Origin: Candidatus Nealsonbacteria bacterium
GTDB taxonomy: Bacteria > Patescibacteriota > Minisyncoccia > Minisyncoccales > JANBVM01
DNA: 64,000 bases
Assembly: GCA_026016225.1 (NCBI GenBank)
Contig: CP061210.1
Location: 194,000 to 257,999, forward strand
Direction: 5' to 3'
Shown: in pieces, positions 2,449 through 47,313 of the stretch
Layout of the letters: each line of letters begins with the position of its first letter
Numbering within the stretch: position 1 is the stretch's first letter
Translations under genes and position numbers: made by a program
Notes under the pieces: generated by a model
What the model was told of the DNA's origin: nothing
Databases searched by the model: none
What the model saw: the letters and a program-made list of their open reading frames with translations, nothing else

Positions 2449-3147
2449 ATGGAGTCATTCTGTGCTTATTGTGGAATAGGATTTGAAGAAATGGACGGAG
2501 AGGCGGCCATTATTGCTCGTCAAAGAAGAGTTCAAAAAATAATGGGCAAAAACTTCTTTGGCGTTGAGGAGGTGGCTAAATATTTCGGCATTCAACTTAC
2601 CAAAGAAGAACTATCAAAAATAGCAGAAATTCCCTTTAGCGACAAGACGCTTCAGGAATGTAAAGACACCCATATTCTCTTTTTAGGTATTAACCGTGAC
2701 AAAGAAGGAAAGCCCCTGACTATCCATCGTTTCAAAGAGATGTTCCCTGAAAATGGTCAACCGAAATTCTATTCATATCAAGGTTCTTGGTATGACAAGG
2801 AAGAATTTGCTAACAAAGAAACACCTGAGCTTCGCTGGTATCTCATGAGAAAGTCGATTCTTGAAGAAAGCAGGTCAAAGACCTACGAACAGCAAGAAAA
2901 GCTTCTCAAGGAGAACGAAGAAAGAGAGCGTGCCATTGTCTACGTCTACGAAATGCTCCTGATGTTCAAGGCTACAGGTGAACGGCTATTTAAGGACGAC
3001 GACTGTGTCTGGTGTAAAGATATTGACGTTGCTGGCTTCCATGTCTATATCGGTGAGTTCGGCTTGGAGGATTTCAGCGTCGGCTACTGGTGGGGCGACG
3101 ACGGCTGGGATAATATGGGTCTCGCTCCCGCTCGGAAATTTGACTGA
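2449..3147 (+). CDS. hypothetical protein; probable N-terminal zinc ribbon, so the true start is likely upstream (about 2374)
   Basis: 232-aa ORF from the track. The same frame is open back to 2368 and encodes CPFC-x10-CAYC, which straddles the annotated Met. Visibly higher GC than the flanks. No family recognised. Confidence 0.6.
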   Translation: MESFCAYCGIGFEEMDGEAAIIARQRRVQKIMGKNFFGVEEVAKYFGIQLTKEELSKIAEIPFSDKTLQECKDTHILFLGINRDKEGKPLTIHRFKEMFPENGQPKFYSYQGSWYDKEEFANKETPELRWYLMRKSILEESRSKTYEQQEKLLKENEERERAIVYVYEMLLMFKATGERLFKDDDCVWCKDIDVAGFHVYIGEFGLEDFSVGYWWGDDGWDNMGLAPARKFD

Positions 3148-3185
3148 GCCTCGACAACTTGGCTACTTGTCTCTTTTGAACCTTA

Positions 3186-3226
3186 AGCCTTCGGCAAAAT
3201 TTTTTCACTGAAGGCTCTTTTTATTT
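3186..3226 (+). terminator. rho-independent terminator after the orphan gene
   Basis: AGCCTTC (3186-3192) pairs with GAAGGCT (3210-3216), followed by CTTTTTATTTT. Confidence 0.6.
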
Positions 3227-3256
3227 TGGCAGCGAGGACACCCCCGCCTCGCCGGA

Positions 3257-3289
3257 AAATGAAAAAGGAGCTTAGATCCCTTTTCATTT
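3257..3289 (-). terminator. terminator for elp3 (minus strand)
   Basis: AAATGAAAAAGG / CCTTTTCATTT hairpin with one bulged A, followed by a T-run on the minus strand. It lies 17 nt downstream of the elp3 stop. Confidence 0.55.
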
Positions 3290-3305
3290 AAGAATAGAGC
3301 TATTT

Positions 3306-4871
3306 CTATTTTAGGGATTTTACCACATAGCTATCTCTTAGCTTATATCCAAACTTGCGGTAATATTCACGGGTTCCGACTGCTGAAATTACAGCTATTT
3401 TATTTAACCCAAATTCTTTTTTAGCTATTTCTTCAGCTTTTTTAATTAATTTTTTTCCTAAACCTCTATGTTGAGGAGCCAATTTTCTTTCTGAAATTGG
3501 CACAAGCTGCCCATAAGTATGGATTTCTCTGATAATAGCAGCGTCCTGTAAAACAGGGAGAAAATGCTTCTTTTGGGTTATTCTTAACCTTAATAAACTG
3601 TAGAGTCTTTCTCTTTTTTTATTTTCAAAAGTTAAAAATGTCTCTTTCCCTTCAGAAGCTTCATAATCTTTTCTATATAAATATAATTTTTCCTCTAAAT
3701 TATATTTGTCTTTAATTTCCCTACAGCGAATACATTTGCATTTCCAACCCTCCTTTTTTATCTCTTTTGCAACAACCTGCCTAAGATTTGATATTTTAGC
3801 AGGCCCTGTAATGATTCTTGGTGAAGGAATGTCTCTTATTATTCTTTCTATTCTGACATAATAAGGGATTTTCTTTTTAGCTTGTTTTATAATATCTATT
3901 AAGGTTTTTTCAGAATAAGGTTTGTATTTTCCTTTTAGATACCATTTATAGAGAGGAGCTTCCTTTAAAAGTGCACAAGGATATATTTTTAAAGAATCTG
4001 GTTTAAAATCAGGGTTTTTGAAAAGTTCCTCGAACATTCTTTTATCTTTTTGTGGGTTTGAACCCGGTAGATTAAGCATCATTTGATACGAAATTTTAAA
4101 CCCCGCATCCTTTAAGAGTTTGGTTGCTTTTATAATGGCTTTTACCTTATGTCCTCTCTGGTTTAAATTCAAAACATCATCATAAATACTCTGGATTCCC
4201 ATTTCCACCTTTGTAATTCCTAATCTTCTCATTCTTTTTATTTCTTTTTCATCAATAAAGTCAGGTCTTGTTTCAATGGAAAAACCTATAATTCTATGTT
4301 TTGTTGTTTCGTTTAATTTTTGAGCTTTTTTTAAATTTTTACTTAGTTTCTTATTACAGCCATCAAAACATCTTTTTACAAACCATGTTTGATATTGTTT
4401 AGGATAATAAGACCAGGTTCCTCCAATAATCCTTAAATCTATTTTGTCGGTGGGATGCCCCTGTATTTTTAACATTTCTACTCTTTTTTTTACCTGTAAA
4501 TAAGGATTATAATTTAAATTTTTTGCTCTTTCTACTGCAGGTTCTCCCGACAAATAACTTTTAGGGATACCCTTTTCTTCCGGACAATAAAGACATCTGC
4601 CAGGGCAAGGATAAGGCTTTGTTAGTACTGAAACGTTGATAATTCCAGAAAGAGAACGGACAGGTCTGGTTTTGAGTAAATTTTCAAGGTTATTACTTTT
4701 TTTTATTCTTTTATCTTTTAATAATTCATGATAAGCTTTTAATAACCAGATATTAGTTGGAAAAGGGATTTTATATTTTTTAGAGATATTTCTTTTAAAA
4801 GAAGTTAAATCAGCCCGGGTCCTAATCCGATTCTTTATTATATCTTTAATAATTAATTTTTGGATTTTCAT
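3306..4871 (-). CDS. elp3: Elp3-family radical SAM / GNAT acetyltransferase (tRNA U34 carboxymethylation enzyme homolog)
   Basis: 521 aa. N-terminal radical-SAM cysteine triad CPGRCLYCP. C-terminal GNAT block QHRGLGKKLIKKAEEIA...VISAVGTREYYRKFGY, typical of Elp3 (COG1243). Confidence 0.8.
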   Translation of the reverse strand: MKIQKLIIKDIIKNRIRTRADLTSFKRNISKKYKIPFPTNIWLLKAYHELLKDKRIKKSNNLENLLKTRPVRSLSGIINVSVLTKPYPCPGRCLYCPEEKGIPKSYLSGEPAVERAKNLNYNPYLQVKKRVEMLKIQGHPTDKIDLRIIGGTWSYYPKQYQTWFVKRCFDGCNKKLSKNLKKAQKLNETTKHRIIGFSIETRPDFIDEKEIKRMRRLGITKVEMGIQSIYDDVLNLNQRGHKVKAIIKATKLLKDAGFKISYQMMLNLPGSNPQKDKRMFEELFKNPDFKPDSLKIYPCALLKEAPLYKWYLKGKYKPYSEKTLIDIIKQAKKKIPYYVRIERIIRDIPSPRIITGPAKISNLRQVVAKEIKKEGWKCKCIRCREIKDKYNLEEKLYLYRKDYEASEGKETFLTFENKKRERLYSLLRLRITQKKHFLPVLQDAAIIREIHTYGQLVPISERKLAPQHRGLGKKLIKKAEEIAKKEFGLNKIAVISAVGTREYYRKFGYKLRDSYVVKSLK

Positions 4872-4913
4872 AAAAGCTTTAAATTAAAAGGAGAAAGTTT
4901 CAATCGTTGGATT

Positions 4914-5618
4914 ATGGAAAGAAAATATGCCAAATCCTTGTTAGAAAAAACTAAACAAGATTATAACTTAATCGCTAAGGATTTTTCAAGAACCAGAAGT
5001 TATCCCTGGCAAGAAATTAAGTTTTTGTTTAATGCCTATTTAAGCCAGAACGAGAAAGTTTTGGATTTGGGTTGCGGAAACGGTAGATACTTCCCATTTT
5101 TTAGGGAAAAACAGGCGGAGTATTTTGGAGTCGATAATTCTGCAGAATTGATTAAAATTGCAAAAAATAAATATCCTGAAGCGAGATTTTCAGTGGAAGA
5201 TGCCTTAAATTTGTCTTTTCCAAATAATTTTTTTGACAAAGTTTACAACATTGCTGTTTTACACCAAATACCCTCAGAGGAATTCCGAACCCGCTTATTA
5301 CAAGAGATAAAAAGAACCTTGAAATTTAAAGGATTATTAATTCTGACTGTCTGGAAATTTCACAGATGGGAAGAATTATCTCTATTATTAAAATATATAA
5401 TTCTAAAGATAATTGGGAAATCAAAACTGGATTGGGGAGATGTTTTTATACCCTGGGGCAGAAAAACTGAAAGATACTATCATTGTTTCTCTAAAAAAGA
5501 ATTAGAGGGTTTAATAAAAAAAGTTGGATTTAAACTTGTAGACTCCGGGATAGCAAAAGACAAAAAAGGAAATAGGCAGAACATATATATAGTAGCACAA
5601 AAGTATCTGGGAGAATAA
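4914..5618 (+). CDS. class I SAM-dependent methyltransferase, Trm9/ALKBH8-MTase-like
   Basis: DYNLIAKDFSRTRSYPWQEI followed by VLDLGCGNGRY matches the Trm9 N-terminal FS.TR..PW block plus SAM motif I. The track start at 4860 overlaps the elp3 start, so ATG 4914 (MERKY...) is preferred. Confidence 0.6.
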   Translation: MERKYAKSLLEKTKQDYNLIAKDFSRTRSYPWQEIKFLFNAYLSQNEKVLDLGCGNGRYFPFFREKQAEYFGVDNSAELIKIAKNKYPEARFSVEDALNLSFPNNFFDKVYNIAVLHQIPSEEFRTRLLQEIKRTLKFKGLLILTVWKFHRWEELSLLLKYIILKIIGKSKLDWGDVFIPWGRKTERYYHCFSKKELEGLIKKVGFKLVDSGIAKDKKGNRQNIYIVAQKYLGE

Positions 5619-5635
5619 TTCATCCTTTATTTTTC

Positions 5636-5708
5636 GTCCCCATAGCTCAACAGGATAGAGTATAGGCTTCCGGAGCCCAAGATATAGGTTCAAATCCTAT
5701 TGGGGACA
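5636..5708 (+). tRNA. tRNA-Arg (anticodon CCG)
   Basis: Hand-folded cloverleaf. Acceptor GTCCCCA/TGGGGAC, D arm GCTC..GAGT, anticodon loop TTCCGGA, T arm ATAGG-TTCAAAT-CCTAT, discriminator A. No encoded CCA. Confidence 0.85.
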
Positions 5709-5744
5709 CAAATAAATATATTTTGAGCCATTTTTTAAACAGAC

Positions 5745-5774
5745 TTGACAATAATATCTCTTTTCACTTAAAAT
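5745..5774 (+). promoter_or_regulatory. sigma70-type promoter driving the candidate sRNA
   Basis: TTGACA (5745-5750), 18-nt spacer, TAAAAT (5769-5774). Confidence 0.5.
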
Positions 5775-5780
5775 TAAAGC

Positions 5781-5943
5781 TTGAAGGGGATACGGAATTG
5801 TTTTCGTAGGACAAGCAGTTTTTTAATGAAGGAGGCTGAAAGGAATTCCCTGGTGTTTGTCCAATCGGGTTTGAGCTTAGGCTGATTTCGGAAAAAATTG
5901 TTCTCTCCTTACTAAAAACGGGACGTTTTATCTTCCCGTTTTT
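5781..5943 (+). ncRNA. candidate small structured RNA, unclassified
   Basis: No ORF. Bounded by a near-consensus promoter and the terminator AAAACGGGA-loop-TCCCGTTTTT (5915-5943). Internal helices include ACGGAA-ttgt-TTTCGT, GGACAA...TTGTCC and the GGAATTCC palindrome. Confidence 0.35.
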
Positions 5944-5998
5944 AGTTTATGAAAAATTATTTTTTAAAAGAATATAAATATTTATAAGATTTTGGAAT

Positions 5999-6027
5999 TT
6001 GCTTTTTAAAGACCGGAAGTGTAAAAT
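5999..6027 (+). promoter_or_regulatory. promoter whose -10 box lies 9 nt from the start codon (leaderless-type)
   Basis: TTGCTT (5999-6004), 17-nt spacer, TAAAAT (6022-6027), ATG at 6037, no SD. Confidence 0.4.
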
Positions 6028-6036
6028 ATATTTATT

Positions 6037-6591
6037 ATGCGATATAAAATTGTAGTATCTGGGGCGGCTCAAATAAAGCATTGTTGTAAAGATATCGAAA
6101 ATATAGCCAAAGAAGTTGGTAGAGAGATTGCCCGTCAAGGATGTATCTTGGTTACAGGAGCTACGACAGGCATTCCCTATTTAGCTGCTTTAGGATTTAA
6201 AGAAATAGATGGAATTTCAATTGGTTTTTCTCCCGCAACCTCTGAGGCTGCTCACTTAAAGACCTATAGACTTCCAATAGATGCTTTTGATGTGATAGTT
6301 TATACCGGAGCTGATTATACTGGTAGAGATGTTATAATGACAAAAGCTGCAGACGGAGTAATTGTAATTTGCGGTCGAATGGGAACCTTACACGAGTTTG
6401 TGACTGCTTTTGAAACTCAAAAACCAATAGGTGTTTTAGAAGGAACAGGTGGAACAGCAGATAAAATAAGATATATAACTAAAGGCCCTTTTAGGGGGGT
6501 GAGAAGAATTATTTATGATAGAGAGCCGAAAAAATTAGTGAGAAGATTAATTAAGCAAATAAAAAAAGAAAAATTAAAGGTCGGAAGATAA
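6037..6591 (+). CDS. TIGR00725 / LOG-SLOG-type Rossmann-fold nucleotide-binding protein
   Basis: 184 aa. ILVTGATTGIP ... ADGVIVICGRMGTLHEF blocks are typical of the LOG/DprA-like (lysine-decarboxylase-like) fold. Confidence 0.55.
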   Translation: MRYKIVVSGAAQIKHCCKDIENIAKEVGREIARQGCILVTGATTGIPYLAALGFKEIDGISIGFSPATSEAAHLKTYRLPIDAFDVIVYTGADYTGRDVIMTKAADGVIVICGRMGTLHEFVTAFETQKPIGVLEGTGGTADKIRYITKGPFRGVRRIIYDREPKKLVRRLIKQIKKEKLKVGR

Positions 6592-6607: not shown

Positions 6608-6880
6608 ATGTCAGATAAACCACCCATACATGAGGAAGGAGAATTAATAGGGAAAATCACTCATTATTTCAGCAAGATTGAAGTGGCTATTATTGAACTG
6701 TCAGATAATTTAAAAGTAGGTGATAATATTAGGATAATAGGTGGAGAAACAGATTTTGAACAAACGATTGAATCAATAGAAATTGACCACAAAAAAGTTA
6801 AAGCAGCTAAAAAGGGCGAAACCATTGGTTTAAAAGTTGAGCAAAAAGTCAGAGAAGGCTATAAAGTCTATAAAATATAG
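6608..6880 (+). CDS. small EF-Tu-domain-2-like beta-barrel protein
   Basis: 90 aa. GKITHYFSKIEVAIIEL...VGDNIRI...KGETIGLKV resembles translation-factor domain II barrels. Confidence 0.35.
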   Translation: MSDKPPIHEEGELIGKITHYFSKIEVAIIELSDNLKVGDNIRIIGGETDFEQTIESIEIDHKKVKAAKKGETIGLKVEQKVREGYKVYKI

Positions 6881-6996: not shown

Positions 6997-8289
6997 ATGA
7001 AGTTCATTGCCGATTTCCATTTACATTCAAAATATTCAAGGGCTACTTCCCCAAAGATGGATTTGGAAAATCTTGAGGAATGGGCAAAGATAAAAGGAAT
7101 TAAAGTTTTGGGAACAGGAGATTTCACCCACCCTTTTTGGTTTAAAAACTTAAAAGAGAAATTAGAACCTGCAGAAAGCGGGCTTTTTAAGATTAAGAAC
7201 CACGCTTCGCGGAACCTTGATTCTCGCTCCGCTCGAATTAAAAACAGTAATACCGGGATCCGTTTTATTTTAAGCGCTGAAATTAGTTGTATTTATTCCA
7301 AAGGAGGGAAGGTCCGTAAAATTCATATTGTAGTTTTAGCTCCCTCTTTTGATATTGTTGAAAAAATTAATACCCGTTTGGAAGGAATTGGGAATTTATC
7401 TGCTGACGGAAGACCAATATTAGGATTAGATGCAAAAGAATTGTTAAAAATTGTTTTAAACATCTCAACAGATTGTTTGTTTGTTCCCGCCCATGTAATG
7501 ACTCCCTGGTTTTCTATTTTCGGTTCAAAATCTGGGTTTGATTCAATTGAGGAATGTTTTGAAGATTATTCTAAATATATTTTTGTTTTAGAGACTGGGC
7601 TATCGGCTAACCCACCAATGCTCTGGCGCATACCAGATGCTCAAAAAGCAATTTTAATATCAAATTCAGATGCTCACTCACCAGCTAATATTGGTAGAGA
7701 GGCAAATGTTTTTAATACGGAGATTAGTTATCCTGCTATTGTTGAAGCTATAAAATCAAGAGATTCCGAAAAGTTTCTTTATACCATTGAGTTTTTTCCT
7801 CAGGAAGGAAAGTATCATTACGACGGTCATAGAATGTGCGGTATCAGATTAGCTCCCGAGGAATCGAAAAAATATAACAATATTTGTCCTAACTGCGGCA
7901 GACCCTTAACAATCGGAGTTTTAAATAGGATAGAACAATTATCAGTTGAGCCGAAAGGTTTTAAACTAAAAGGAGCTATTCCTTTTAAAAGCTTAGTTCC
8001 TTTGAGAGAAATAATTGCCGAAGTCTTGGGAATGGGTGTTACTACCAAAGGTGTTGAAAAAGAGTATAAGTCTTTAATTGAGAATTTTGGTAATGAGCTT
8101 GAAATTTTGCTTAATACTTCTCATGATGAGTTAGAGAAAGTTACCTTGCCTGAGACTGCAGAAGGAATAATTAGGGTTAGAGAAGGAAAAGTTTTTGTAG
8201 AACCCGGTTATGATGGGGTTTATGGAAAAGTAAGAATTTTTTCTAAAGGAGAACAAGAGTCTTTATCTAAACAAGGAGTCCTTTTTTAA
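6997..8289 (+). CDS. endoQ: PHP-domain endonuclease Q (EndoQ / TIGR00375)-like protein
   Basis: 430 aa. N-terminal PHP motif DFHLHSKYSRATS, GKYHYDGHRMCG, and zinc finger CPNCGRPLTIGVLNRI. Size and layout match the EndoQ family. Confidence 0.55.
   Translation: MKFIADFHLHSKYSRATSPKMDLENLEEWAKIKGIKVLGTGDFTHPFWFKNLKEKLEPAESGLFKIKNHASRNLDSRSARIKNSNTGIRFILSAEISCIYSKGGKVRKIHIVVLAPSFDIVEKINTRLEGIGNLSADGRPILGLDAKELLKIVLNISTDCLFVPAHVMTPWFSIFGSKSGFDSIEECFEDYSKYIFVLETGLSANPPMLWRIPDAQKAILISNSDAHSPANIGREANVFNTEISYPAIVEAIKSRDSEKFLYTIEFFPQEGKYHYDGHRMCGIRLAPEESKKYNNICPNCGRPLTIGVLNRIEQLSVEPKGFKLKGAIPFKSLVPLREIIAEVLGMGVTTKGVEKEYKSLIENFGNELEILLNTSHDELEKVTLPETAEGIIRVREGKVFVEPGYDGVYGKVRIFSKGEQESLSKQGVLF
7191..7244. 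repeat. GC-rich repeat element inserted in frame in the EndoQ-like gene
   Basis: ATTAAGAACCACGCTTCGCGGAACCTTGATTCTCGCTCCGCTCGAATTAAAAAC. It shares ATTAAGAACCA, GAACCTTGATTC and CTCGCTCCGCTCG with the reverse complement of the 14473-14558 tandem units. Flanked by ATTAAGAAC / ATTAAAAAC. Confidence 0.7.
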
Positions 8290-8290
8290 A

Positions 8291-9208
8291 ATGACCATTG
8301 GTATTCCTCGAGCTTTAATACACTGGAAAAGACCCCATTTTTGGGAAGTTTTTTTTCATAATCTCGGTTTTAAGGTTTTACTCTCTCCTTTAACCAATAA
8401 AGAAATCGTGGAGGCAGGAGTAAAAATAGCTGACCCTGAAACTTGTTTTTCTACCAAGGTTTATTGGGGACACTTAGTGTGGTTAGATAATAAATGTGAT
8501 TTAATTTTTGTTCCCAGGTTAAAAACAAACGAAGAAAAACTTGAATACTGTCCTAAACTTTTTGCTTTACCTGATTTAGCAAAACTCTTAGTTAAAACTT
8601 CAATTTTAACTGAGACCTTTGACGAAAGAAAAGAAGAATTTAAAAAAAGCCTTGAGAAGTTGGGAAGAAAAATAAATAAAAAGAAAGGAGAAATAAAGAA
8701 AGCTGCGAAAATTGCTTTTTCAGAGGAGAAAAAATTAAAAGAGAAAGAAAAGCAAGATTTTTTTAAAAAAATAAAATCTAAAAAACCAAAAATTGTTTTA
8801 ATTTCTCATCCCTACAATTTATATGATGAATATGTTAATTTGAGGATAAAGGAGAAATTAGAAAAATTAGGGGTAGAATCAATATTTATTGAAGAAGTTA
8901 CTCTTAGTTCAAAGCTTCAGGCTACTTGTTCTCAACCTATTTTAGGAGTAAGGTTTCACTGGGAGTTTGGAAAAGAAATAATTGAAAAAATCCAAGAAAT
9001 ATTGAAATATGATATTACCGGAGCAATTGAACTCTCTTCTTTTGCTTGCGGCTGCGATGCGGTTTTAAAGGAATTTGTTGAAAAAGAATTTAAAGAAGCA
9101 AAAATCCCCTTTTTGTATTTAATAATTGATGAACATACCGGAGAAGCAGGCTTTCAAACAAGATTAGAAGCTTTTATAGATACCCTTCAGTTAATCATAA
9201 AAACATAA
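8291..9208 (+). CDS. acyl-CoA dehydratase activase-related protein (DUF2229-like)
   Basis: 305 aa. The N-terminal IGIPRAL...W..FF..LGF...S block and conserved Cys residues (ETCFSTK, EYCPK, SFACGCD) resemble the uncharacterised domain fused to BcrAD/BadFG activases. Confidence 0.5.
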   Translation: MTIGIPRALIHWKRPHFWEVFFHNLGFKVLLSPLTNKEIVEAGVKIADPETCFSTKVYWGHLVWLDNKCDLIFVPRLKTNEEKLEYCPKLFALPDLAKLLVKTSILTETFDERKEEFKKSLEKLGRKINKKKGEIKKAAKIAFSEEKKLKEKEKQDFFKKIKSKKPKIVLISHPYNLYDEYVNLRIKEKLEKLGVESIFIEEVTLSSKLQATCSQPILGVRFHWEFGKEIIEKIQEILKYDITGAIELSSFACGCDAVLKEFVEKEFKEAKIPFLYLIIDEHTGEAGFQTRLEAFIDTLQLIIKT

Positions 9209-9269
9209 AAGAATACAAACATAAAACATAGGAGTCTTAATTTATTTATACCCATTCTTAAATGTTTAT

Positions 9270-10349
9270 ATGAAAATACAAAAACCGAAAATAACTTTTG
9301 CTAGATGGGGGAATTATACTATTGCTTTTAAAACTCTCTTTAAGCAACTTGGCTTAGAGGTTATTTCTCCCGAGAAAACAAATTCCCAGACAATTGCTGA
9401 GGGAGCAAAATTAGCTCCCGAGATGTATTGCCTTCCTTTGAAGGTGAACATTGGGAATTATTTAGAGACAATAAGAAGGGGGGCTAACACAATTTTTATG
9501 GTTACTGCTCTTGGTGGTTCTTGTCGCTTGAGATATTATGGTGCAGTTCAAGATAAGGTTTTAAAAGAAGCAGGTTATAAAGTAGATTTCGTTATTTTTG
9601 ACCAGGATCCCAGAAATATTTATTCCAAAATAAAAGAAATTTCCGCAGCTTCTCCCTGGCAAATTTTTAAAGCAGCTAGATTTTTTTTCAAAAAATTGAG
9701 ATTTATTGAAAAACTGGAAAAGATGGTTCAATATTCCAGACCAAGGGAGATAGAAAAGGGAATGACCGATAAGTTATTAATTGAGACTTTTATGGAACTC
9801 GACAGGATAGAAAAAGAGAAAGATTATCCAAAATTTAAGAGAGAAGCTTTAAGAAAATTTTCAGAGATTAAAATTGAAAAAAATAAAGATATCCCAAAGG
9901 TTGGTTTGATTGGGGAAATCTATACGGTTTCTGACCCAATAATTAATTTTGAAGCAGAAAGAAAATTAGGAGAAGAAGGAATAGAAGTTCATCGGGAAAT
10001 GGATTTGACTTATCATTTAAAGAAAAAAATTTTTCCCTGGAAAGATTGGATAATACAAAAGAAAATAAACCCTTATTTAAAATCAACTGTTGGCGGACAC
10101 GGAAGAGATGCAATTTATGAGATGTTAGATTATGTGAAAAAGGGTTTTGATGGAGTAATTCATCTACTCCCGGCATTCTGCATGCCAGAGATAACAGTAA
10201 GGCCAATTTTGGAGAAGATTCACCAAGAAAGCGGTATTCCATTTTTATCATTATCATTAGATGAACAGGTGGCTGAGGCCGGAATAAATACCCGGCTTGA
10301 GGCCTTTGTAGATGTAGTGACAAATCATCACAAAAGCAAAAAATTATGA
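9270..10349 (+). CDS. 2-hydroxyacyl-CoA dehydratase (HgdB / D-component)-like protein
   Basis: 359 aa. EMYCLPLK, GGSCRLRYYG, PAFCMPE and the C-terminal DEQVAEAGINTRLEAF block, paralogous to the end of ORF 8291 (DEHTGEAGFQTRLEAF). Confidence 0.5.
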   Translation: MKIQKPKITFARWGNYTIAFKTLFKQLGLEVISPEKTNSQTIAEGAKLAPEMYCLPLKVNIGNYLETIRRGANTIFMVTALGGSCRLRYYGAVQDKVLKEAGYKVDFVIFDQDPRNIYSKIKEISAASPWQIFKAARFFFKKLRFIEKLEKMVQYSRPREIEKGMTDKLLIETFMELDRIEKEKDYPKFKREALRKFSEIKIEKNKDIPKVGLIGEIYTVSDPIINFEAERKLGEEGIEVHREMDLTYHLKKKIFPWKDWIIQKKINPYLKSTVGGHGRDAIYEMLDYVKKGFDGVIHLLPAFCMPEITVRPILEKIHQESGIPFLSLSLDEQVAEAGINTRLEAFVDVVTNHHKSKKL

Positions 10350-11317
10350 GAACATATTTAGGCATTGATGTAGGTTCCATTTCCACTAAATTGGTTTTAA
10401 TTAATGAAAAAAACCAGATTTTATATCACCTTTATATAAGAACTGAAGGAAACCCGATTTTAGCTGTTCAGAGAGGATTAAAGAACCTGAAAGAATATAT
10501 TAAAGATAATAGTTTAGAAATTGAAATAGCAGGAGTAGGAACTACGGGGTCAGCCCGCTATTTAGCAGGAGTAATTACTGGTGCTGATTTAATTAAGAAT
10601 GAAATTACTGCCCATGCTATGGGGACTTCTTTTTTAACTCCTGATGTTAGAACAATAATTGAAATTGGTGGTCAGGACTCAAAAATTATTATTTTAGAAA
10701 ACGGTGTAGCAGTTGATTTTGCCATGAACTTAATTTGTGCGGCAGGTACCGGGTCTTTTCTTGACGCCCAGGCTTTCCGCTTAAAGATTCCTATTGAGAA
10801 ATTTGGTGACTTAGCTTTGAAGTCAAAAAAGCCGACCAGCATCGGCTCGCGATGCACGGTATTTTGCGAGTCAGATATGATTCACAAACAGCAGATAGGT
10901 CATAAAATAGAAGATATTGTAGCTGGTCTTTGTCAGGGTCTGGCAAGAAACTTTTTAGCTAACGTAGCTAAGGGAAAGAATATTCAGCCCCCAATTATTT
11001 TTCTTGGGGGTGTTTCTGAAAATATGGGAATGAGAAAGGCTTTTGAAGATGCCTTACAACAAAAAATTACTGTTCCGCCATATAATACCGTAATGGGTGC
11101 TTTTGGGGTAGCTCTTTTAATAAAACAAAACCCGTCTCAAAAAACAAAATTTTTAGGTTTTGGAATTTCAAATAAAGATATTAAATGTACCTCATTTCAA
11201 TGCAAGGGTTGTCCTAATCATTGTGAGGTAATTGAGGCAAGAATAGATGGAAAAATCGTTGCTCGTTGGGGAGATAGATGCGGAAAGTGGTCGAATCTAA
11301 GCGTTACAGACTTATAA
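10346..11317 (+). CDS. BcrAD/BadFG-family ATPase (dehydratase activase, HgdC-like) with a C-terminal Cys-rich extension
   Basis: LGIDVGSISTK phosphate-1 motif, EIGGQDSK, CAAGTGSF and SRCTVFCESD cluster-ligand blocks. Extra CTSFQCKGCPNHCEV motif. Start overlaps the previous stop (ATGA). Confidence 0.75.
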   Translation: MRTYLGIDVGSISTKLVLINEKNQILYHLYIRTEGNPILAVQRGLKNLKEYIKDNSLEIEIAGVGTTGSARYLAGVITGADLIKNEITAHAMGTSFLTPDVRTIIEIGGQDSKIIILENGVAVDFAMNLICAAGTGSFLDAQAFRLKIPIEKFGDLALKSKKPTSIGSRCTVFCESDMIHKQQIGHKIEDIVAGLCQGLARNFLANVAKGKNIQPPIIFLGGVSENMGMRKAFEDALQQKITVPPYNTVMGAFGVALLIKQNPSQKTKFLGFGISNKDIKCTSFQCKGCPNHCEVIEARIDGKIVARWGDRCGKWSNLSVTDL

Positions 11318-11365
11318 TGAATCATTTAACTTGTTAAGGACCAAATTCAAAATTTTTCAAACTGA

Positions 11366-11387
11366 AAGCCGCAAAAAAGCGGTTTTT
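11366..11387 (+). terminator. terminator after the activase gene
   Basis: AAGCCGC-aaaaaa-GCGGTTT hairpin with a T-run, immediately followed by TATAAT (11392-11397). Confidence 0.5.
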
Positions 11388-11409
11388 GTTATATAATAGA
11401 AATAGAAAA

Positions 11410-12339
11410 ATGTATCCAAGCTACTTAAATTTATCTAAAGAGGATTTAAATCAGAGGATAGAAAAACTTTTTAAAGTTTTAGAAAATTGTGAGATTTGTC
11501 CAAGGAAATGTTATGTAAATAGGATAAAAGGAGAAAAAGGATATTGTCAATTAGATTTTCTACCAGTAGTTTCTGCTTTTCACCCCCATTTTGGTGAAGA
11601 AAGTCCTTTGGTTGGAAGGTTTGGTCCCGACTCATGGGCGAGTCGAGGCGGGTCTGGAACAATTTTTTTCACTTCTTGTAATCTATCTTGTGTTTACTGC
11701 CAAAATTATGAAATTTCTCAATTAAGAAGAGGAGAAGAAGTTTCTTTTGAAAGATTAGCAAAAATGATGTTAGAACTTCAAAATCGGGGCTGCCACAATA
11801 TTAATTTAGTTACCCCAACTCCTCAGGTTCCCCAGATTTTAAAATCGCTTTCAATAGCAATTAAGCACGGTCTTAAAATTCCTCTTGTTTATAATACCAA
11901 TTCTTATGATTCAATTGAGGTTTTAAAATTATTGGATGGAATTGTCGATATTTATATGCCAGATGTTAAATATTCTGATGATAAGATTGCTTTGAAATAT
12001 TCTAATGCTCCAAAATATTTCGAAATAATGAAAGAGGCTGTTAAAGAGATGCACCGGCAAGTTGGAGATTTGGTTTTAGACGAAGAGGGAATAGCTATAC
12101 GAGGTTTATTAGTCAGGCATTTGGTTTTACCCAATGATTTGGCAGGTTCTGAAAAGATTTTCAATTTTATATCCAAAGAAATTTCAGAAAACACTTTTTT
12201 GAACATTATGGATCAATATAACCCCAATTTTAAAGCGTATCAGTATCCTGAGCTTTCTTGGAGGATTACAGATAAAGAATATCAAATGGCAATAAAATTA
12301 GCCAAAGAAGCAGGCCTTAAAAGGCTTTATAGAAATTAA
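11410..12339 (+). CDS. radical SAM protein, PflX-like (COG1313) activating-enzyme homolog
   Basis: CEICPRKCYVNRIKGEKGYC N-terminal motif and CNLSCVYCQN (CxxxCxxC). ATG 11410 is preferred over the track start at 11386, which lies in the promoter. Confidence 0.7.
   Translation: MYPSYLNLSKEDLNQRIEKLFKVLENCEICPRKCYVNRIKGEKGYCQLDFLPVVSAFHPHFGEESPLVGRFGPDSWASRGGSGTIFFTSCNLSCVYCQNYEISQLRRGEEVSFERLAKMMLELQNRGCHNINLVTPTPQVPQILKSLSIAIKHGLKIPLVYNTNSYDSIEVLKLLDGIVDIYMPDVKYSDDKIALKYSNAPKYFEIMKEAVKEMHRQVGDLVLDEEGIAIRGLLVRHLVLPNDLAGSEKIFNFISKEISENTFLNIMDQYNPNFKAYQYPELSWRITDKEYQMAIKLAKEAGLKRLYRN
11623..11652. repeat. GC-rich hairpin element in frame in the radical SAM gene
   Basis: GGTCCCGACTCATGGGCGAGTCGAGGCGGG. 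Stem CGACTC (11628-11633) / GAGTCG (11640-11645) with a 6-nt loop. Encodes GPDSWASRGG inside the otherwise conserved G-x-GSGTIFF region. Confidence 0.55.
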
Positions 12340-13401: not shown

Positions 13402-14448
13402 TTATTTTGCTGGTAGCCAAACAATCAAATTTTCCTTTGTTTCAAACTTCCCATTAATAAATTTTTCAATTACCCAGATATTAGTTTTACAGTGACTTGT
13501 GATTTCTGAAACTGTAATCTGGGATTTTTTAGGAGATAAGGCTAAGTAGGCTAAAATTTGGTCACCTAAATGTTTATCCAGACAAGCTTTGCTTTTTTCT
13601 TCTTTTAATAATTCCAAAGCTGCTTCTTTACCAACATCTTCTGCTCTTTTTCCCAATTTCCCAAAATTATCAGTTCCAATAATCGTGTTTTCAAATTCGG
13701 CTATTAGAGAAATCTGACTGCCAGGACATTGGGGTTGATAATATTCTACTTTTTCCTCAATAGGCAATTTTAATTTCCCAAAAATTTCTCTTACCCCGGC
13801 AACTTGACGCTCTGCCACTTTTTTATTCCTTAATAATTCTGAAGCCCCGGAAATTACTGAAATTTTTTGAAGTTGACCTCTTTTAATTAAATGGAGTGGT
13901 TTTAATTTCGAAGGATAAATTTTCACCTCAACTTTTGCTCCACCTTCTGGATAGTAGCCTCTTTTTAAAATATTAATTTCTACTTTAACTCCCATTCTTT
14001 CTAATAATTTTAAAAAAACATATTGAAAATAATCAATAGTTGGTGAGAAAAAGGTATCGGTAGCACCACCATTGAAAGTAATTTTTATATATTTGGGAGT
14101 TTGCCCTGGGACTGTCGAATGGGCAAAAATAGAAGGAGGAATTAATGTTTGTAAAAGTAAAGTAATACTTCCTGCTGTTGGAATGTTAATTGAGATATGT
14201 TCTTGATAATTTGAGCCGGGATAGAATTTTATTTCAGTTGACCCTAAATAGTTGCCTTCCAATTTTCCATTACAAAAGTGGGCTAAAGCTTGAAGTCCTA
14301 AAAGATGCTGGTATCTCAAACCGGGCTTTGGTCTTTTTTTTCGAATATTAAAAACACGGCAATTTCTTTTAGTAATTGCTGCTAAAGCAGTTGCCACTCT
14401 CAATATAGCTCCACCGCCTTCATATTTTGAACCATCAAGTTCTAACAT
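13402..14448 (-). CDS. rtcA: RNA 3'-terminal phosphate cyclase
   Basis: 348 aa. MLELDGSKYEGGGAILRVATALAAIT..., RPKPGLRYQHL, and LLQTLIPP...GGATD are characteristic RtcA blocks. Confidence 0.8.
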   Translation of the reverse strand: MLELDGSKYEGGGAILRVATALAAITKRNCRVFNIRKKRPKPGLRYQHLLGLQALAHFCNGKLEGNYLGSTEIKFYPGSNYQEHISINIPTAGSITLLLQTLIPPSIFAHSTVPGQTPKYIKITFNGGATDTFFSPTIDYFQYVFLKLLERMGVKVEINILKRGYYPEGGAKVEVKIYPSKLKPLHLIKRGQLQKISVISGASELLRNKKVAERQVAGVREIFGKLKLPIEEKVEYYQPQCPGSQISLIAEFENTIIGTDNFGKLGKRAEDVGKEAALELLKEEKSKACLDKHLGDQILAYLALSPKKSQITVSEITSHCKTNIWVIEKFINGKFETKENLIVWLPAK

Positions 14449-16238: not shown

Positions 16239-17252
16239 ATGATAATTACATCTGCTCCAGGTAAGGTTATTTTATTTGGGGAACATGCTGTTGTCTATGA
16301 TAAATTAGGGATTGTTTGCAGTATTGATAAAAGATGTAATGTTAAGATTTTATCTACTAAAGAAAACAGGATTTTTATTAGGTCTGAAAAACTTGGTTTA
16401 GCAAAAGTTTTAAATAAAAAAGAACTATTTAGCTTTTTTAATACAATTAATAATTTAAGAAGTAAAGATAAATTTGATGGGACAAAAGAGGTTTTTGAAA
16501 AAGATAAGTTAGCTCCTATCTTTTTTGTTATTGCTAATATTTTTAAAAAATACGACTTTAAGGGTTTGAGGGTAGAGATTGACTCAGAGATTCCCAAGGG
16601 CCTGGGTTCAAGTTCTGCTGTTTTTTCAGCCATTGCACTTGGGGTTCTGAAGTTTTTGGGAAAAATTCCTTCTAAAAAAGAAATCTCTGATTTTGCCTAT
16701 CAAGGAGACTTAATAGCTCATGGCGGAACTCCATCAGGTATAGATAATGCAGCTGTTACTTACGGAGGTTATTTAAAATACAGAAAATCAATAGGGATTG
16801 AGCCTTTAGAAATTGATTTTGAAATTCCCCTATTAGTTGTTGAGAGCGGCGAAGAAGCAAAAACAGCAGAAACTGTTTCTTATGTAAGAAAAAATAAAAA
16901 AGAGAATCCCGAATTTGTAAACCCTATTTTAAATTCCCTAAATAGTATTTCTGAGAAAGCGTTAGAAGCTTTAATTTTTCAAAAATTAGATGATTTAGGA
17001 AGGTTGATGTTTAAATACTATCAAGAATTAAAAAGACTTAATATTTCAACTGAGAAATTAGACAAAATTATTGAAATTGCTTTACAGAATAGTGTCTTGG
17101 GAGCAAAACCCACCGGCGGCTGGGGTGGAGGTTGTTGTTTAATTTTGGCAAAAAATGAAAAAAGAATAGATAATTTAATGAAAGTTTTTAAAAAAAATGG
17201 TTTTAAATCTTTTCGAGTTAAGATTGGAGTAGAAGGAGTAAAATTAATTTAG
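16239..17252 (+). CDS. mvk: mevalonate kinase (GHMP kinase family)
   Basis: SAPGKVILFGEHAVVY N-terminus, GHMP motif PKGLGSSSAV, and KPTGGWGGGC near the C-terminus. Confidence 0.8.
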   Translation: MIITSAPGKVILFGEHAVVYDKLGIVCSIDKRCNVKILSTKENRIFIRSEKLGLAKVLNKKELFSFFNTINNLRSKDKFDGTKEVFEKDKLAPIFFVIANIFKKYDFKGLRVEIDSEIPKGLGSSSAVFSAIALGVLKFLGKIPSKKEISDFAYQGDLIAHGGTPSGIDNAAVTYGGYLKYRKSIGIEPLEIDFEIPLLVVESGEEAKTAETVSYVRKNKKENPEFVNPILNSLNSISEKALEALIFQKLDDLGRLMFKYYQELKRLNISTEKLDKIIEIALQNSVLGAKPTGGWGGGCCLILAKNEKRIDNLMKVFKKNGFKSFRVKIGVEGVKLI

Positions 17253-23584: not shown

Positions 23585-23591
23585 GTTTTTG

Positions 23592-23929
23592 TGGAGGTGG
23601 CGAGCGCGAACTCGCGTCCAAAAATTGTTTCTAAGATAATTCTACAAGCTTATTCCAATTAAAGAATAACAGAAAATTCAAATTGGACAAAACTTTTCTG
23701 TGTTTGGTCTGTTTTTTTTCGATAGTTTCTTTAGACCTTAAAAACTATCTATCTCGATATATGACACCTACCTTATTTATCGAGAATCAGTAAAGCAGAT
23801 GGCATTAAGCGTAAGCTAATGCAGGTTCTTGAAATAAGTTGGCACTTATTTTTCTCTCAAAGTTTACGAGATTTGAGAATACTCGACTTGCCTATCTTAG
23901 TTAAATTTCTGTCGAAACTTTTCACCCCC
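23592..23929 (-). ncRNA. ssrA: tmRNA (SsrA)
   Basis: 5' end GGGGGTGAAAAGTTTCGACAG. 3' end GGACGCGAGTTCGCGCTCGCCACCTCCA. The 7-bp acceptor stem includes G3:U. Tag ORF is GCC AAC TTA TTT CAA GAA CCT GCA TTA GCT TAC GCT TAA, giving ANLFQEPALAYA (plus-strand 23805-23843). CCA is not encoded. Confidence 0.85.
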
Positions 23930-24365: not shown

Positions 24366-24404
24366 TCTTTGATTTTAGCAGAAAAATTAGATAAGCTAAA
24401 ACTA

Positions 24405-25685
24405 ATGAGAAAAAATAGCAGAATTCCAGAATTTTTCAAGTTAAAGAGAAAAGGAAAAATCAAAATTGTAAAAAATTTCGCTAATTTAACTGATAAAGAA
24501 ATTAAAATAATTGAGAAAGGATTTTTAGAGCCAGAAATAAGAGATAAAATAATAGAAAACGTTATTGGGACATTTCCTCTTCCATACGCTATTGCTGTAA
24601 ACTTTTTAATTAACCAGAAAGATTATCTTGTGCCAATGGTTATTGAAGAACCTTCTGTAGTAGCTGCCGCTTGTTATGGAGCAAGATTAACAAGAGAAAG
24701 CGGGGGAATATTTGCCAAAAGTTTAGGAAATTTGATGATAGGTCAAATTTATATAATTGATCTAAAAAATCCTCAAAGAGCTAAAAAAAAGATATTAAAA
24801 GAAAAAAAAGAAATTTTAAAAATTGCCAATAGACAAAACCCCATTTTGACAGAATTGGGAGGAGGGGCAAAGGATTTAGAAACAAAAATATTTAAAAAAA
24901 CAAAAATCGGTCCAATTCTAAGAATTCATCTATTAATTGATACTAAAGATGCCATGGGAGCTAATACGGTGGATACGATGGTTGAACAAACAGCTCCCTT
25001 TATTGAAAAAATTATAGGCGAGAAAGTTCTTTTGAAAATAGTTTCCAATTTAGCTGAAAAAAGATTGGTGGAGGTAAAGACAATAGTAACAAAAAAAGCT
25101 TTAAAAAAAGAAGGTTTTCCTCCTGAAGAAACAATTCAAAAAATTGTCAAAGCTCAAGTTTTAGCCGAAACTGATATTTACCGGGCAGTGACTAATAATA
25201 AAGGAATTTTAAACGGGATGGGAGCAGTAGCTTTGGCTACTGGAAATGACTGGCGAGCGCTTGAAGCCGGAGCTCACGGTTTTGCAGCAAAATCAGGAAA
25301 ATATAAACCTCTGGCTGTCTGGAGAAAAAATAAAGAAGGAAATTTAACTGGCAAAATGACAGTTCCCATAGCAGTTGGTATAGTAGGAGGTATAACCCAG
25401 GTTCATCCAACAGCCAGAATTTCCTTAAAGATTTTAAAAGTAAAATCAGCTCAAGAATTAGCCCAGGTAATAGCTTCTGTAGGTTTGGTTCAAAATTTGG
25501 CAGCTTTAAGAGCTTTGGTTTCAGAAGGAATTCAGTCAGGCCATATGAAATTGCATGTCAGGAACATAGCCATGGCAGTGGGAGCTAAAGGGAAAACAGT
25601 TGATAAAATAGCTAAACAGATGGTTAAAGAGAAAAAAATCAACATTGAAAGAGCTAAGGAGATTTTTGAGCAATTTAAGAAATAA
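24405..25685 (+). CDS. mvaA: hydroxymethylglutaryl-CoA reductase, class II
   Basis: EEPSVVAAACYGARL, DAMGANTVDTM and GHMKLHVRN blocks fit a class II HMGR of about 426 aa. ATG 24405 (MRKNSRIPEFFKL) is preferred. The track start TTG 24369 is only 4 nt from the smpB start. Confidence 0.8.
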   Translation: MRKNSRIPEFFKLKRKGKIKIVKNFANLTDKEIKIIEKGFLEPEIRDKIIENVIGTFPLPYAIAVNFLINQKDYLVPMVIEEPSVVAAACYGARLTRESGGIFAKSLGNLMIGQIYIIDLKNPQRAKKKILKEKKEILKIANRQNPILTELGGGAKDLETKIFKKTKIGPILRIHLLIDTKDAMGANTVDTMVEQTAPFIEKIIGEKVLLKIVSNLAEKRLVEVKTIVTKKALKKEGFPPEETIQKIVKAQVLAETDIYRAVTNNKGILNGMGAVALATGNDWRALEAGAHGFAAKSGKYKPLAVWRKNKEGNLTGKMTVPIAVGIVGGITQVHPTARISLKILKVKSAQELAQVIASVGLVQNLAALRALVSEGIQSGHMKLHVRNIAMAVGAKGKTVDKIAKQMVKEKKINIERAKEIFEQFKK

Positions 25686-45665: not shown

Positions 45666-47309
45666 ATGGAAAAAACAATTTTAATCGGAGGAAAAGCAGG
45701 TCAGGGCACAGCCGTGACTTCACATTTTATAGGAAAAGTATTTTGTGCTCTGGGCTATTATGTTTTTAACTATCGTGATTATCCTTCTCTTATAAGAGGA
45801 GGTCATAATTTTAATGTTTTGAGAATTTCTGACAAACCTGTTTATTCTCATAAAGATAAATACGATATAATTTTAGCTTTTGACCAAAAAACAATAAATT
45901 TACATCAAAAAAATTTAAAAAGAGAAGGTTTTATTTTAGGAGATAAAACTTTAAAAACAAAGAGGTTGCAAAAAATTGATATTCAGCCTATTTTAAGTAA
46001 ATTAAAAGCCCCCAAAATTATAGAAAATGATATTTTAATAGGGTGGCTTTTTAAATATTTTGGAGTTGATAAAAACTTCTTATTAAAAGAGGCAGAAAAA
46101 GTTTTTAAAGGAAAAAAAACAGGATTAATAAAAAAAGCTATAGAAAAAGGATATAGTTTAGCCCCAAAAAAAGAAAGATTAAAGAGGGTAGGTTCGAAGA
46201 AATATTTCATTTCAGGAAGTCAAGGAATAGGAATTGGGGCTTTAAATTCAGGAATTGATATTTATATTGCTTATCCAATGACACCAGCTACTCCTGTTTT
46301 GCACTTTTTAGCAGGAAAACAATTAAAAGATAATATTTTAGTCTTACAATTAGAAAATGAGATTTCAGTAATAAATTCAGCTTTAGGAGCTTCTTTTGCC
46401 GGAGCTAAAACAATGGTGGGAACTTCTGGAGGAGGCTTTGCCTTAATGACAGAAGCTATGAGTTTAGCAAGTATCTCAGAACTGCCTTTGGTGGTTTATT
46501 TAGCTCAAAGAACAGGGCCTGCTACGGGTGTTCCAACTTATACAGCTCAAAGTGATTTAAAATTTGCAGTTAATGCCGGGCACGGAGAATTTCCAAGAAT
46601 TGTTGTAGCTCCCGGAGATTCACAAGAAGCAATATTAAGAACCCAGGAAGCTTTTTATCTCTCTTTGAAATACCGAACCTTAGCGATAATTATAGGGGAT
46701 AAACATGTAGCAGAATCAGATTATAGTTTTGATACGTTGAAAGTATCTCCTTTAACCAATCAAAAATTTATTTTAAAGAATCCTCCTAAAAATTACAAAA
46801 GCTATAAAATAACAAAAAATGGAGTTTCTCCACGAGCTGTACCCGGTCAAGAGCCCGTGATTCGAGCTACCAGTTATGGACACAACGAATACGGAAATAC
46901 AATCGAAGATGCAAAATGGACAATTAAAATGAACGATAAAAGATTTAAAAAAGTAAGATATTTAGAAAAAGAAATAAGTAAACTAAATCCTGTCTCTATT
47001 TATGGTAAGGGGAAAAACCTAATAATTGCTTGGGGTTCAACCAAAGGAGCCATATTAGATTCATTACCAGAACTTAAAAGTTTTAGATTTTTGCAAGTTT
47101 CCTACATCAGTCCCTTTCCCAAAAAAGTTATAGAAAACGAAATTAAAAAATCTAAAAGAGTGGTTTTAGTTGAGAATAATGCTACAGGTTTATTAGGAGA
47201 TATAATTGCTGAAAAAACAGGATTTATTATTAAAGAGAAAATTTTAAAATACGATGCCAGACCGTTTGTTTCTGACTATATAATTAATAAAGTAAAGAAA
47301 AAAAAGTGA
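45666..47309 (+). CDS. korA: 2-oxoacid:ferredoxin oxidoreductase, fused gamma-alpha subunit
   Basis: N-terminal gamma-type block (GGKAGQGTAVTSHFIGK...YPSLIRGGHN) followed by the alpha domain (AYPMTPATP...). Confidence 0.75.
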   Translation: MEKTILIGGKAGQGTAVTSHFIGKVFCALGYYVFNYRDYPSLIRGGHNFNVLRISDKPVYSHKDKYDIILAFDQKTINLHQKNLKREGFILGDKTLKTKRLQKIDIQPILSKLKAPKIIENDILIGWLFKYFGVDKNFLLKEAEKVFKGKKTGLIKKAIEKGYSLAPKKERLKRVGSKKYFISGSQGIGIGALNSGIDIYIAYPMTPATPVLHFLAGKQLKDNILVLQLENEISVINSALGASFAGAKTMVGTSGGGFALMTEAMSLASISELPLVVYLAQRTGPATGVPTYTAQSDLKFAVNAGHGEFPRIVVAPGDSQEAILRTQEAFYLSLKYRTLAIIIGDKHVAESDYSFDTLKVSPLTNQKFILKNPPKNYKSYKITKNGVSPRAVPGQEPVIRATSYGHNEYGNTIEDAKWTIKMNDKRFKKVRYLEKEISKLNPVSIYGKGKNLIIAWGSTKGAILDSLPELKSFRFLQVSYISPFPKKVIENEIKKSKRVVLVENNATGLLGDIIAEKTGFIIKEKILKYDARPFVSDYIINKVKKKK

Positions 47310-47313
47310 AACT

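Follow-up and report, generated by a model that had tools for sequence, protein, structure and literature searches.

Accurate decoding of split codon boxes requires tRNAs whose wobble uridine is modified at C5 (xm5U34), and the route to these nucleosides has been treated as a marker at the level of domains, with MnmE and MnmG assigned to bacteria and Elp3 or the Elongator complex to archaea and eukaryotes. The genes of Elp3 and of the methyltransferase Trm9 are clustered in the archaeon Sulfolobus solfataricus (PMC2584109), and in Haloferax Trm9 together with its partner Trm112 makes 5-methoxycarbonylmethyluridine (mcm5U) (PMC6144793). As for bacteria, a 2020 review of the Elp3 structural field described Elp3 as confined to Dehalococcoides and reported no evidence for bacterial xcm5U, that is, 5-carboxymethyluridine (cm5U) and its derivatives, and the Elp3 of Dehalococcoides mccartyi (DmcElp3) was described as weak both in tRNA binding and in activity (PMC7663514). 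In a 2026 paper, Elp3 is ascribed to 'numerous bacteria', with no mention of a bacterial Trm9. Here we describe a divergent gene pair encoding an Elp3 and a Trm9-like class I methyltransferase dependent on S-adenosylmethionine (SAM), found in a 64,000-nucleotide stretch of contig CP061210.1 (positions 194,000 to 257,999; the window, in what follows, is this whole stretch). An original prediction, made from the letters of the sequence and without database searches, had read the pair as a possible eukaryotic- or archaeal-type wobble uridine pathway in a bacterium.

The assumption that the source is a bacterium was borne out by a transfer-messenger RNA (tmRNA) gene at 23589-23929 (133.5 bits) and by open reading frames (ORFs) of the SmpB, IF3, L20 and TopA types within the window, which has a G+C content of about 32%. 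In NCBI, moreover, a protein assigned to 'Candidatus Nealsonbacteria bacterium' (Parcubacteria/Patescibacteria) is 100% identical to the methyltransferase. All motifs that the original prediction had quoted for the two ORFs were found in place: CPGRCLYCP, QHRGLGKKL and VISAVGTREYYRKFGY in the minus-strand ORF at 3306-4871, and DYNLIAKDFSRTRSYPWQEI and DLGCGNGRY in the plus-strand ORF ending at 5618.

We began with the product of 3306-4871, a protein of 521 amino acids, which proved to be the genuine Elp3 that had been proposed. It matched the NCBIfam model TIGR01211 with 569.8 bits against a cutoff of 350 (E 4.9e-171), the match spanning residues 7-520 of 521 and model positions 2-522 of 522, and its best match in the PDB was 6iaz, the archaeal Elp3 of Methanocaldococcus infernus (MinElp3; 6e-137, residues 49-519, 460 bits). 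It further matched DmcElp3 (5l7j; 7e-118, residues 71-520, 397 bits) and the yeast and human Elp3 structures (~1e-100). Pfam recognized the Radical_SAM (E 1.3e-17) and Radical_SAM_C (E 7.4e-21) domains and, above cutoff, Acetyltransf_1 and Acetyltransf_10, with ELP3_N scoring 23.9 bits, below its cutoff of 27. The [4Fe-4S] motif C89-x3-C93-x2-C96 (CPGRCLYC) aligns to the cluster cysteines of both MinElp3 and DmcElp3, and the CxCxxC zinc motif of the linker (KCKCIRCRE) to KCRCIRCRE of DmcElp3. The C-terminal GNAT/KAT domain, in which the acetyl-CoA motif Q-x-x-G-x-G is present, carries QHRGLGKKL and YYRKFGY in register with QHRGLGRKL and YYRSLGY of DmcElp3. The protein also possesses a basic, lysine- and arginine-rich N-terminal extension of about residues 1-70, a part that in MinElp3 is tied to tRNA binding and higher activity (PMC6367351; PMC7663514). 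Judged by its sequence, 3306-4871 encodes a full-length Elp3 with intact cofactor motifs.

The partner gene has a mechanical ORF that starts at a TTG at 4860, overlapping the elp3 gene. Since 28 homologues have N termini (consensus MxxEYA) that fall on the ATG at 4914 when aligned, the gene is likely 4914-5618 on the plus strand, encoding 234 amino acids. We compared this protein to the PDB both as a single sequence and in the form of two profiles, A1 built from 29 close homologues and A2 from 59 diverse ones. The first match was in each case 5cm2_Z, the Yarrowia lipolytica Trm9 from the Trm9-Trm112 complex, at 4.7e-16 and 62 bits with the single sequence (next match, 49.5 bits), at 4.3e-21 and 78.6 bits with A1 (next, 67.8) and at 3.2e-28 and 101.7 bits with A2 (next, 91.6). 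The margin over the next sequence matches is modest; in the alignments that were inspected, Trm9 was the one match seen to run through the C-terminal substrate-binding half to the last strand. The protein harbors an N-terminal motif Y17-x-x-IA-x-x-F-S-x-x-R28-x-x-P-W32, SAM motif I in the form D51-LGCGNG, and further key residues at H117-Q118, W147, P-W181, R187-Y-Y189-H and N223, and its AlphaFold2 model (predicted local distance difference test score, 95.9) has a seven-strand Rossmann-type topology. The family to which it belongs comprises 329 clusters at 50% identity (E <= 1e-30).

In yeast Trm9, alanine at R29, D72, H116, W145, W168, R241, Y243 or N271 abolishes function, Y18 was modelled to contact the cm5U carboxylate, H115A reduces activity and a K31 mutant behaves like the wild type (Létoquart et al., PMC4678810). 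Seven of the eight essential residues are identical in the window methyltransferase, yeast R29, D72, W145, W168, R241, Y243 and N271 corresponding to R28, D51, W147, W181, R187, Y189 and N223, respectively, and the eighth, H116, corresponds to Q118 and is thus different. Y17 (yeast Y18) and H117 (yeast H115) are kept as well. Across the 59 diverse relatives, the arginine and the aspartate are each present in 58, the W145-equivalent tryptophan in all 59, the asparagine in 55 and a histidine at the H116-equivalent position in 54, and the position equivalent to K31 is variable. The first rank of 5cm2_Z in the three PDB searches and the family-wide conservation of residues essential in yeast support the proposal that this neighbor is Trm9-like beyond a generic Methyltransf_11 assignment; in PDB sequence searches, the product of 4914-5618 is closer to Trm9 than to other characterized methyltransferases.

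Conservation of the pair was surveyed from both sides. In the forward survey, one genome per species (GTDB) was searched with the alignment of the methyltransferase family, the best 80 loci were kept and Elp3 was located in them by tblastn. The methyltransferases of these loci are down to 34% identical to the window protein, and the loci carry Patescibacteria-type labels, covering Parcubacteria/Paceibacterota, Portnoy-, Kuenen-, Kerfeld-, Falkow-, Magasanik-, Moran-, Lloyd-, Gracili- and Peregrinibacteria and Ca. Microsyncoccus, save for a few doubtful labels of metagenome-assembled genomes (Gammaproteobacteria, Bdellovibrionales and one Pacearchaeota). Elp3 lay within the locus in 71 of the 80 species-level genomes and was divergent and adjacent to the methyltransferase in 63 (opposite strand, starts within a few hundred bp, median gap ~26 bp), with a co-directional Elp3-methyltransferase operon in one locus (L062). 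A locus carrying the pair (L047) belongs to Ca. Microsyncoccus archaeolyticus PMX.50, a cultivated Patescibacterium. The other window neighbors recurred near the pair in 0-21 of the 80 loci, NIF3 in 16, a SLOG protein in 17, a PHP/MJ0043_C protein in 18 and an EF-Tu-domain-2-like protein in 21. In the reverse survey, metagenome contigs were searched with Elp3, giving 80 loci at 53-76% identity, about 70 of them informative. The methyltransferase was divergent and adjacent in 64 of these 80 loci (64 of the ~70 informative ones) and lay ~2 kb upstream of Elp3 in four; the 12 loci with no methyltransferase match included 10 with less than 300 nt of upstream sequence and two with 326-498 nt. The pairing of the two genes is not due to chance. 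Conserved synteny of Elp3 and the methyltransferase, the absence of which had been named beforehand as a refutation, was therefore found in genomes (63 of 80) as well as in metagenome loci (64 of ~70). The accompanying statement that bacterial Elp3 is rare did not hold for this lineage, Elp3 being widespread in Patescibacteria and Dehalococcoidia.

For the Dehalococcoidia, the query was a DmcElp3 sequence rebuilt from its PDB alignment. In D. mccartyi itself (CP019867, L089), a 224-amino-acid Methyltransf_11 gene was found divergent from elp3 at a distance of 43 bp, and three further Dehalococcoidia contigs showed the same divergent arrangement, the methyltransferases of all four measuring 216-224 amino acids. 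The pair was thus present in four of five informative Dehalococcoidia loci, one locus being without it and one more uninformative. The methyltransferase of D. mccartyi has 29% identity to that of the window (E 8e-23); it and its counterpart in L090 keep the HH, TVW, VPW, RYY and RN motifs, with a weaker N-terminal motif that in D. mccartyi has degenerated to F-D-R-IA...R. Since the pair occurs also in Chloroflexota, within a different gene neighborhood, it spans at least two bacterial phyla. As a separate observation, the one among the 80 best methyltransferase loci that is labelled 'Candidatus Pacearchaeota archaeon' (DPANN; L025, contig DAOPTN010000030.1) encodes a methyltransferase and an Elp3 that are 47% and 60% identical, respectively, to the window proteins; either it is a mis-binned contig of the Candidate Phyla Radiation (CPR), or it hints that CPR bacteria and DPANN archaea have exchanged the pair.

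Compared to the archaeal systems of Elp3 and Trm9-Trm112 (M. infernus, Haloferax volcanii HVO_1032/Trm112 and the S. solfataricus cluster), the window pair is alike in having a stand-alone Elp3 without Elp1/2/4-6, with a basic N-terminus and CxCxxC, and in the presence of a Trm9-type methyltransferase, the archaeal gene clustering being a precedent. It is unlike them in its bacterial host (tmRNA, SmpB), in that no Trm112 gene was detected nearby, and in its divergent head-to-head layout, in which the start codons often overlap and which is specific to these bacteria. MinElp3 furthermore has one extra residue in its radical-SAM motif (CPHGKCIFC), whereas that of the window Elp3 is Cx3Cx2C, as in DmcElp3 (CPGKCIYC). 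The eukaryotic system, Elongator (Elp1-6) with Trm9 or ALKBH8 and Trm112, is built on the same pair of catalytic folds, predicted to act in the same order, and shares with the window pair seven of the eight essential Trm9 residues. The window pair, in contrast, is without accessory Elongator subunits, is without a detected Trm112, has Q in place of H116, and includes a compact methyltransferase (234 amino acids) that has neither the insertions known from yeast Trm9 nor the additional domains of ALKBH8. DmcElp3, the only structurally studied bacterial Elp3, likewise stands alone with a divergent Trm9-like methyltransferase gene 43 bp upstream, but it is devoid of the ~70-residue N-terminal extension, its alignment starting at residue 71 of the window Elp3.

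Two bacterial pathways offer a more distant comparison. The MnmE/MnmG(/MnmC) pathway, which leads to 5-carboxymethylaminomethyluridine and 5-methylaminomethyluridine (cmnm5U/mnm5U34), is expected to share the modified position (U34 C5), the split-box tRNAs and the physiological role, but it relies on unrelated enzymes (a GTPase and an FAD/folate enzyme) and makes a different side chain. In the CmoA/CmoB/CmoM pathway of Gram-negative bacteria, which converts uridine 5-oxyacetic acid (cmo5U) to its methyl ester (mcmo5U), a class I methyltransferase methyl-esterifies a carboxyl on the C5 side chain of a wobble uridine. The upstream chemistry of that pathway is, however, hydroxylation and carboxy-SAM; among its enzymes only CmoB matches the window methyltransferase, at 21 bits against an NCBIfam cutoff of 275, and the best PDB match is Trm9 and not a CmoM-type entry.

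Taking these data together, we consider it likely that Elp3 makes cm5U34 and that the adjoining methyltransferase esterifies it to mcm5U34, the two proteins forming a module that would modify U34, the wobble uridine, in a subset of tRNAs. In the first step, Elp3, acting alone without Elp1/2/4-6 as it does in archaea, would bind tRNA via its basic N-terminal extension and cleave SAM at its [4Fe-4S] cluster, yielding a 5'-deoxyadenosyl radical, and the acetyl group of acetyl-CoA, bound by the GNAT domain, would then be attached to C5 of U34 to give cm5U. In the second step, the Trm9-like methyltransferase would use SAM to methyl-esterify the cm5U carboxyl, giving mcm5U, or possibly its 2-thiolated form (mcm5s2U), given a thiolase elsewhere in the genome. 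A pyruvate/2-oxoacid:ferredoxin oxidoreductase encoded in the window (45666-48183) could supply both the acetyl-CoA and the low-potential reductant, reduced ferredoxin. We infer that the substrates would be, by analogy, tRNA-Lys(UUU), tRNA-Glu(UUC), tRNA-Gln(UUG), tRNA-Arg(UCU) and tRNA-Gly(UCC), that the methyltransferase would work without Trm112 and that the module would substitute for MnmE/MnmG.

Several observations weigh against this reading, and some of them bear directly on the product. Workers on Elp3 themselves state that direct evidence for bacterial xcm5U34 is lacking, and the in vitro activity of DmcElp3 is weak (PMC7663514). Eukaryotic and Haloferax Trm9 require Trm112, of which none was found near the pair: a motif scan detected no Trm112-like ORF in the 64-kb window, its zinc ribbons lying solely within aminoacyl-tRNA synthetases, TopA and similar proteins, apart from one upstream of and in frame with the ORF at 2449-3147; tblastn with Escherichia coli YcaR produced no match in the window and 1.38 Mb of related loci; and no PF03966 gene was present in any annotated neighborhood of the pair loci. 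As the search covered the window and related loci, independence of Trm112 is put forward as a hypothesis. The same applies to the replacement of the Mnm enzymes, for E. coli MnmE and MnmG had no tblastn match in the window and the 1.38 Mb of related loci, a weak negative because these cover a small part of each genome. Finally, Q118 occupies the position of H116 in the window methyltransferase, and H116A is inactive in yeast. This variant is common to a subclade (14 of the 29 close relatives) and therefore represents a lineage variant rather than a lesion; it is probably tolerated, though it may alter activity.

A small zinc-ribbon protein was noted in the Dehalococcoidia, where an ORF of 72-75 amino acids lies one or two genes beyond the methyltransferase on the minus strand (L089 3423-3650, L090 3387-3605, L174 1967-2185 and L175 1691-1909), with a gene for QueH, the tRNA epoxyqueuosine reductase, nearby. 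The copies read or matched (L089, L174 and L090) carry the motif CPxC...CWKC-x-x-LY-x-I. We considered this ORF as a Trm112 candidate, its motif C-x-x-C-x-x-x-Y-x-I being alike by eye, and rejected it, as it matched neither PF03966 nor a Trm112 entry of the PDB.

The replacement of H116 and the missing Trm112 (window and related loci) would also fit a different product, and an insertion of 6 residues ahead of the N223 strand, as compared to the Yarrowia Trm9, points the same way. The methyltransferase would in that case still be coupled to Elp3, yet methylate another atom of the Elp3 product or of the same tRNAs, or act on a lineage-specific derivative of cm5U, resulting in a different xm5U-type nucleoside. 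There is a parallel in Haloferax, where, without Trm9, cm5U is turned into other, unidentified species (PMC6144793), so that the end products of the pathway vary between lineages. We nevertheless regard this alternative as unlikely, given that all the residues which modelling places around the cm5U carboxylate and the uracil ring, to hold them (counterparts of Y18, R241, H115, N271 and W145), are conserved and that most members of the family keep a histidine at the H116 position.

Other observations against an mcm5U-forming Trm9 concern the assignment of the methyltransferase itself, and could be taken to mean that it is an unrelated small-molecule or protein methyltransferase of the UbiE/BioC kind, standing beside Elp3 merely through inherited gene order in compact genomes. 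Its Pfam matches are solely to generic methyltransferase families (Methyltransf_11, E 1.6e-18), and nothing in NCBIfam exceeded its cutoff, the sub-threshold matches (UbiE/MenG, BioC and CpaM) being all far below theirs; both collections return such generic matches because they hold no curated hidden Markov model specific to Trm9. Among automated names at JGI, many homologues at 60-65% identity are called 'TRM9' or 'ALKBH8' and some homologues 'UbiE'. In a Foldseek comparison of the model to the PDB, Trm9 came second (3.2e-17, template modelling score 0.84), just below an uncharacterized Methanosarcina methyltransferase (3sm3), and several small-molecule methyltransferases were among the structural neighbors. 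The fold alone is therefore not discriminating, and we used sequence profiles and functional residues instead, in which Trm9 was consistently the best PDB sequence match and the residues contacting tRNA and cm5U were conserved. Inherited gene order, for its part, does not account well for a pair that is kept in 63 of 80 and 64 of ~70 loci when other neighbors reach at most 21 of 80, nor for its recurrence in Chloroflexota amid different genes, and we consider an unrelated methyltransferase very improbable. Least credible of all is that Elp3 is a protein (lysine) acetyltransferase or some other radical-SAM enzyme with the methyltransferase as partner in that process, since, although Elp3 was once annotated as a histone acetyltransferase and PDB entries are still so named, tRNA alone triggers the hydrolysis of acetyl-CoA by Elp3 from bacteria, archaea and eukaryotes (PMC6367351), and the window protein aligns end to end with these tRNA-triggered enzymes and has the N-terminal extension for tRNA binding.

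Returning to the likely formation of mcm5U34 by Elp3 and the Trm9-like methyltransferase, a wider claim can be built on it, to which we give only tentative credence. Patescibacteria as a radiation, and Dehalococcoidia independently or by transfer, would make xm5U by means of a cassette of Elp3 and a Trm112-independent Trm9 instead of MnmE/MnmG; mcm5U(s2) would be a genuine bacterial nucleoside, and the cassette would have been inherited or moved as a unit.

The space between the two genes was examined as well. The original prediction had placed the start codons about 40 bp apart and proposed a shared regulatory region. The distance stood, the spacer at 4872-4913, read directly, being 42 bp long and AT-rich; the shared regulatory region remains a proposal, and in many relatives there is no DNA between the two genes. 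A promoter scan of 3100-6100 returned 10 sites, compared to 11.4 +/- 3.1 expected by shuffling, and thus gave no support to such a region, and no Shine-Dalgarno sequence at canonical spacing was found for either gene. In relatives the spacer shrinks down to 0 bp or gives way to overlapping start codons, and a dedicated shared regulatory region is therefore not a conserved feature. Divergent starts overlapping in the 4-nt palindrome CATG were read directly in the loci of 13 relatives (at 5000-5003 in L011, L014, L016, L018, L029 and L072, and at 3000-3003 in L098, L103, L104, L111, L114, L144 and L147), and abutting starts take the form CATATG (L001, 5998-6003). Where start codons overlap or abut, the promoters and ribosome-binding sites must consequently lie inside the coding sequence of the partner, or else the mRNAs are leaderless. 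We also noted a promoter-like site on the minus strand of the window at 4960-4989 (TTGAAA, an 18-nt spacer and TATAAT; 11 of 12 matches), which sits within the methyltransferase coding region ~90 nt upstream of the Elp3 start. Several Elp3 starts have a TATTNT-like sequence at -12 to -7, yet the same bases encode the conserved Q-Y of the methyltransferase N-terminus.

Downstream of the pair, on the plus strand, a tRNA-Arg(CCG) gene lies at 5636-5709, 18 nt past the methyltransferase stop codon. The same tRNA gene directly follows the methyltransferase gene in 17 of 58 related Patescibacterial loci (L001, at 6690-6762; L007, L009, L010, L012, L013, L016-L024, L026 and L056), in some of which it overlaps the 3' end of the latter. 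We weighed a functional link of this tRNA to the pair and dismissed it: the tRNA carries C34 and is therefore not an expected substrate of Elp3 and Trm9, and its gene is missing from more distant genomes in which the pair is retained. Its adjacency probably reflects clade-level synteny or co-transcription. It is followed, still on the plus strand, by genes for a SLOG/LDcluster4 (TIGR00725-like) protein (6037-6591), a 90-amino-acid EF-Tu-domain-2-like protein (6608-6880) and a PHP/MJ0043_C protein (6997-8289), and then, at 8291-12339, by two DUF2229/HGD-D proteins, a BcrAD/BadFG-type activase ATPase and a further radical SAM protein. This last cluster resembles a 2-hydroxyacyl-CoA dehydratase-like system and, among the related loci (1 of 80), is almost confined to this genome.

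On the other side of the pair, convergent with the elp3 gene, a 232-amino-acid ORF (2449-3147, plus strand) matched no Pfam or NCBIfam family and was conserved in none of 80 related genome loci. A zinc ribbon (CPFC...CAYC, 2419-2472) spans its annotated ATG, with in-frame sequence upstream at 2371-2448, which suggests that this ORF has an earlier, non-ATG start. The window further contains genes of archaeal or eukaryotic flavor, for a presenilin-type signal-peptide peptidase (PF06550; 1413-2270), an RNA 3'-phosphate cyclase RtcA (13402-14448), an HMG-CoA reductase (16239-17252) and a protein with an N-terminus reminiscent of mevalonate kinase (24369-25685). An archaeal-like gene content is known for CPR bacteria, and such window genes fit it.

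As for precedent, both enzyme families are known, as is the pathway from two other domains; the value of the bacterial pair is in how broad and tight the association is, and in the prediction of mcm5U in bacteria. In the literature searchable as full text, no paper joins Elp3 with 'Candidate Phyla Radiation' or MnmG with Patescibacteria, and Elp3 with Patescibacteria, like Dehalococcoides with Trm9, co-occur incidentally only; among searchable titles and abstracts we found no description of a bacterial Trm9.

To summarize, the complete module of Elp3 and a Trm9-like methyltransferase is conserved in the Patescibacteria, a very large radiation, and in D. mccartyi, the model organism of bacterial Elp3, this partner likewise adjoins elp3. 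The pair would explain what acts downstream of bacterial Elp3 and predicts that mcm5U exists in bacteria. It would also provide small, stand-alone and possibly Trm112-independent enzymes with which to reconstitute the pathway in vitro or in E. coli, and it is relevant to the archaeal-like traits of CPR bacteria and to a possible horizontal transfer of the module.

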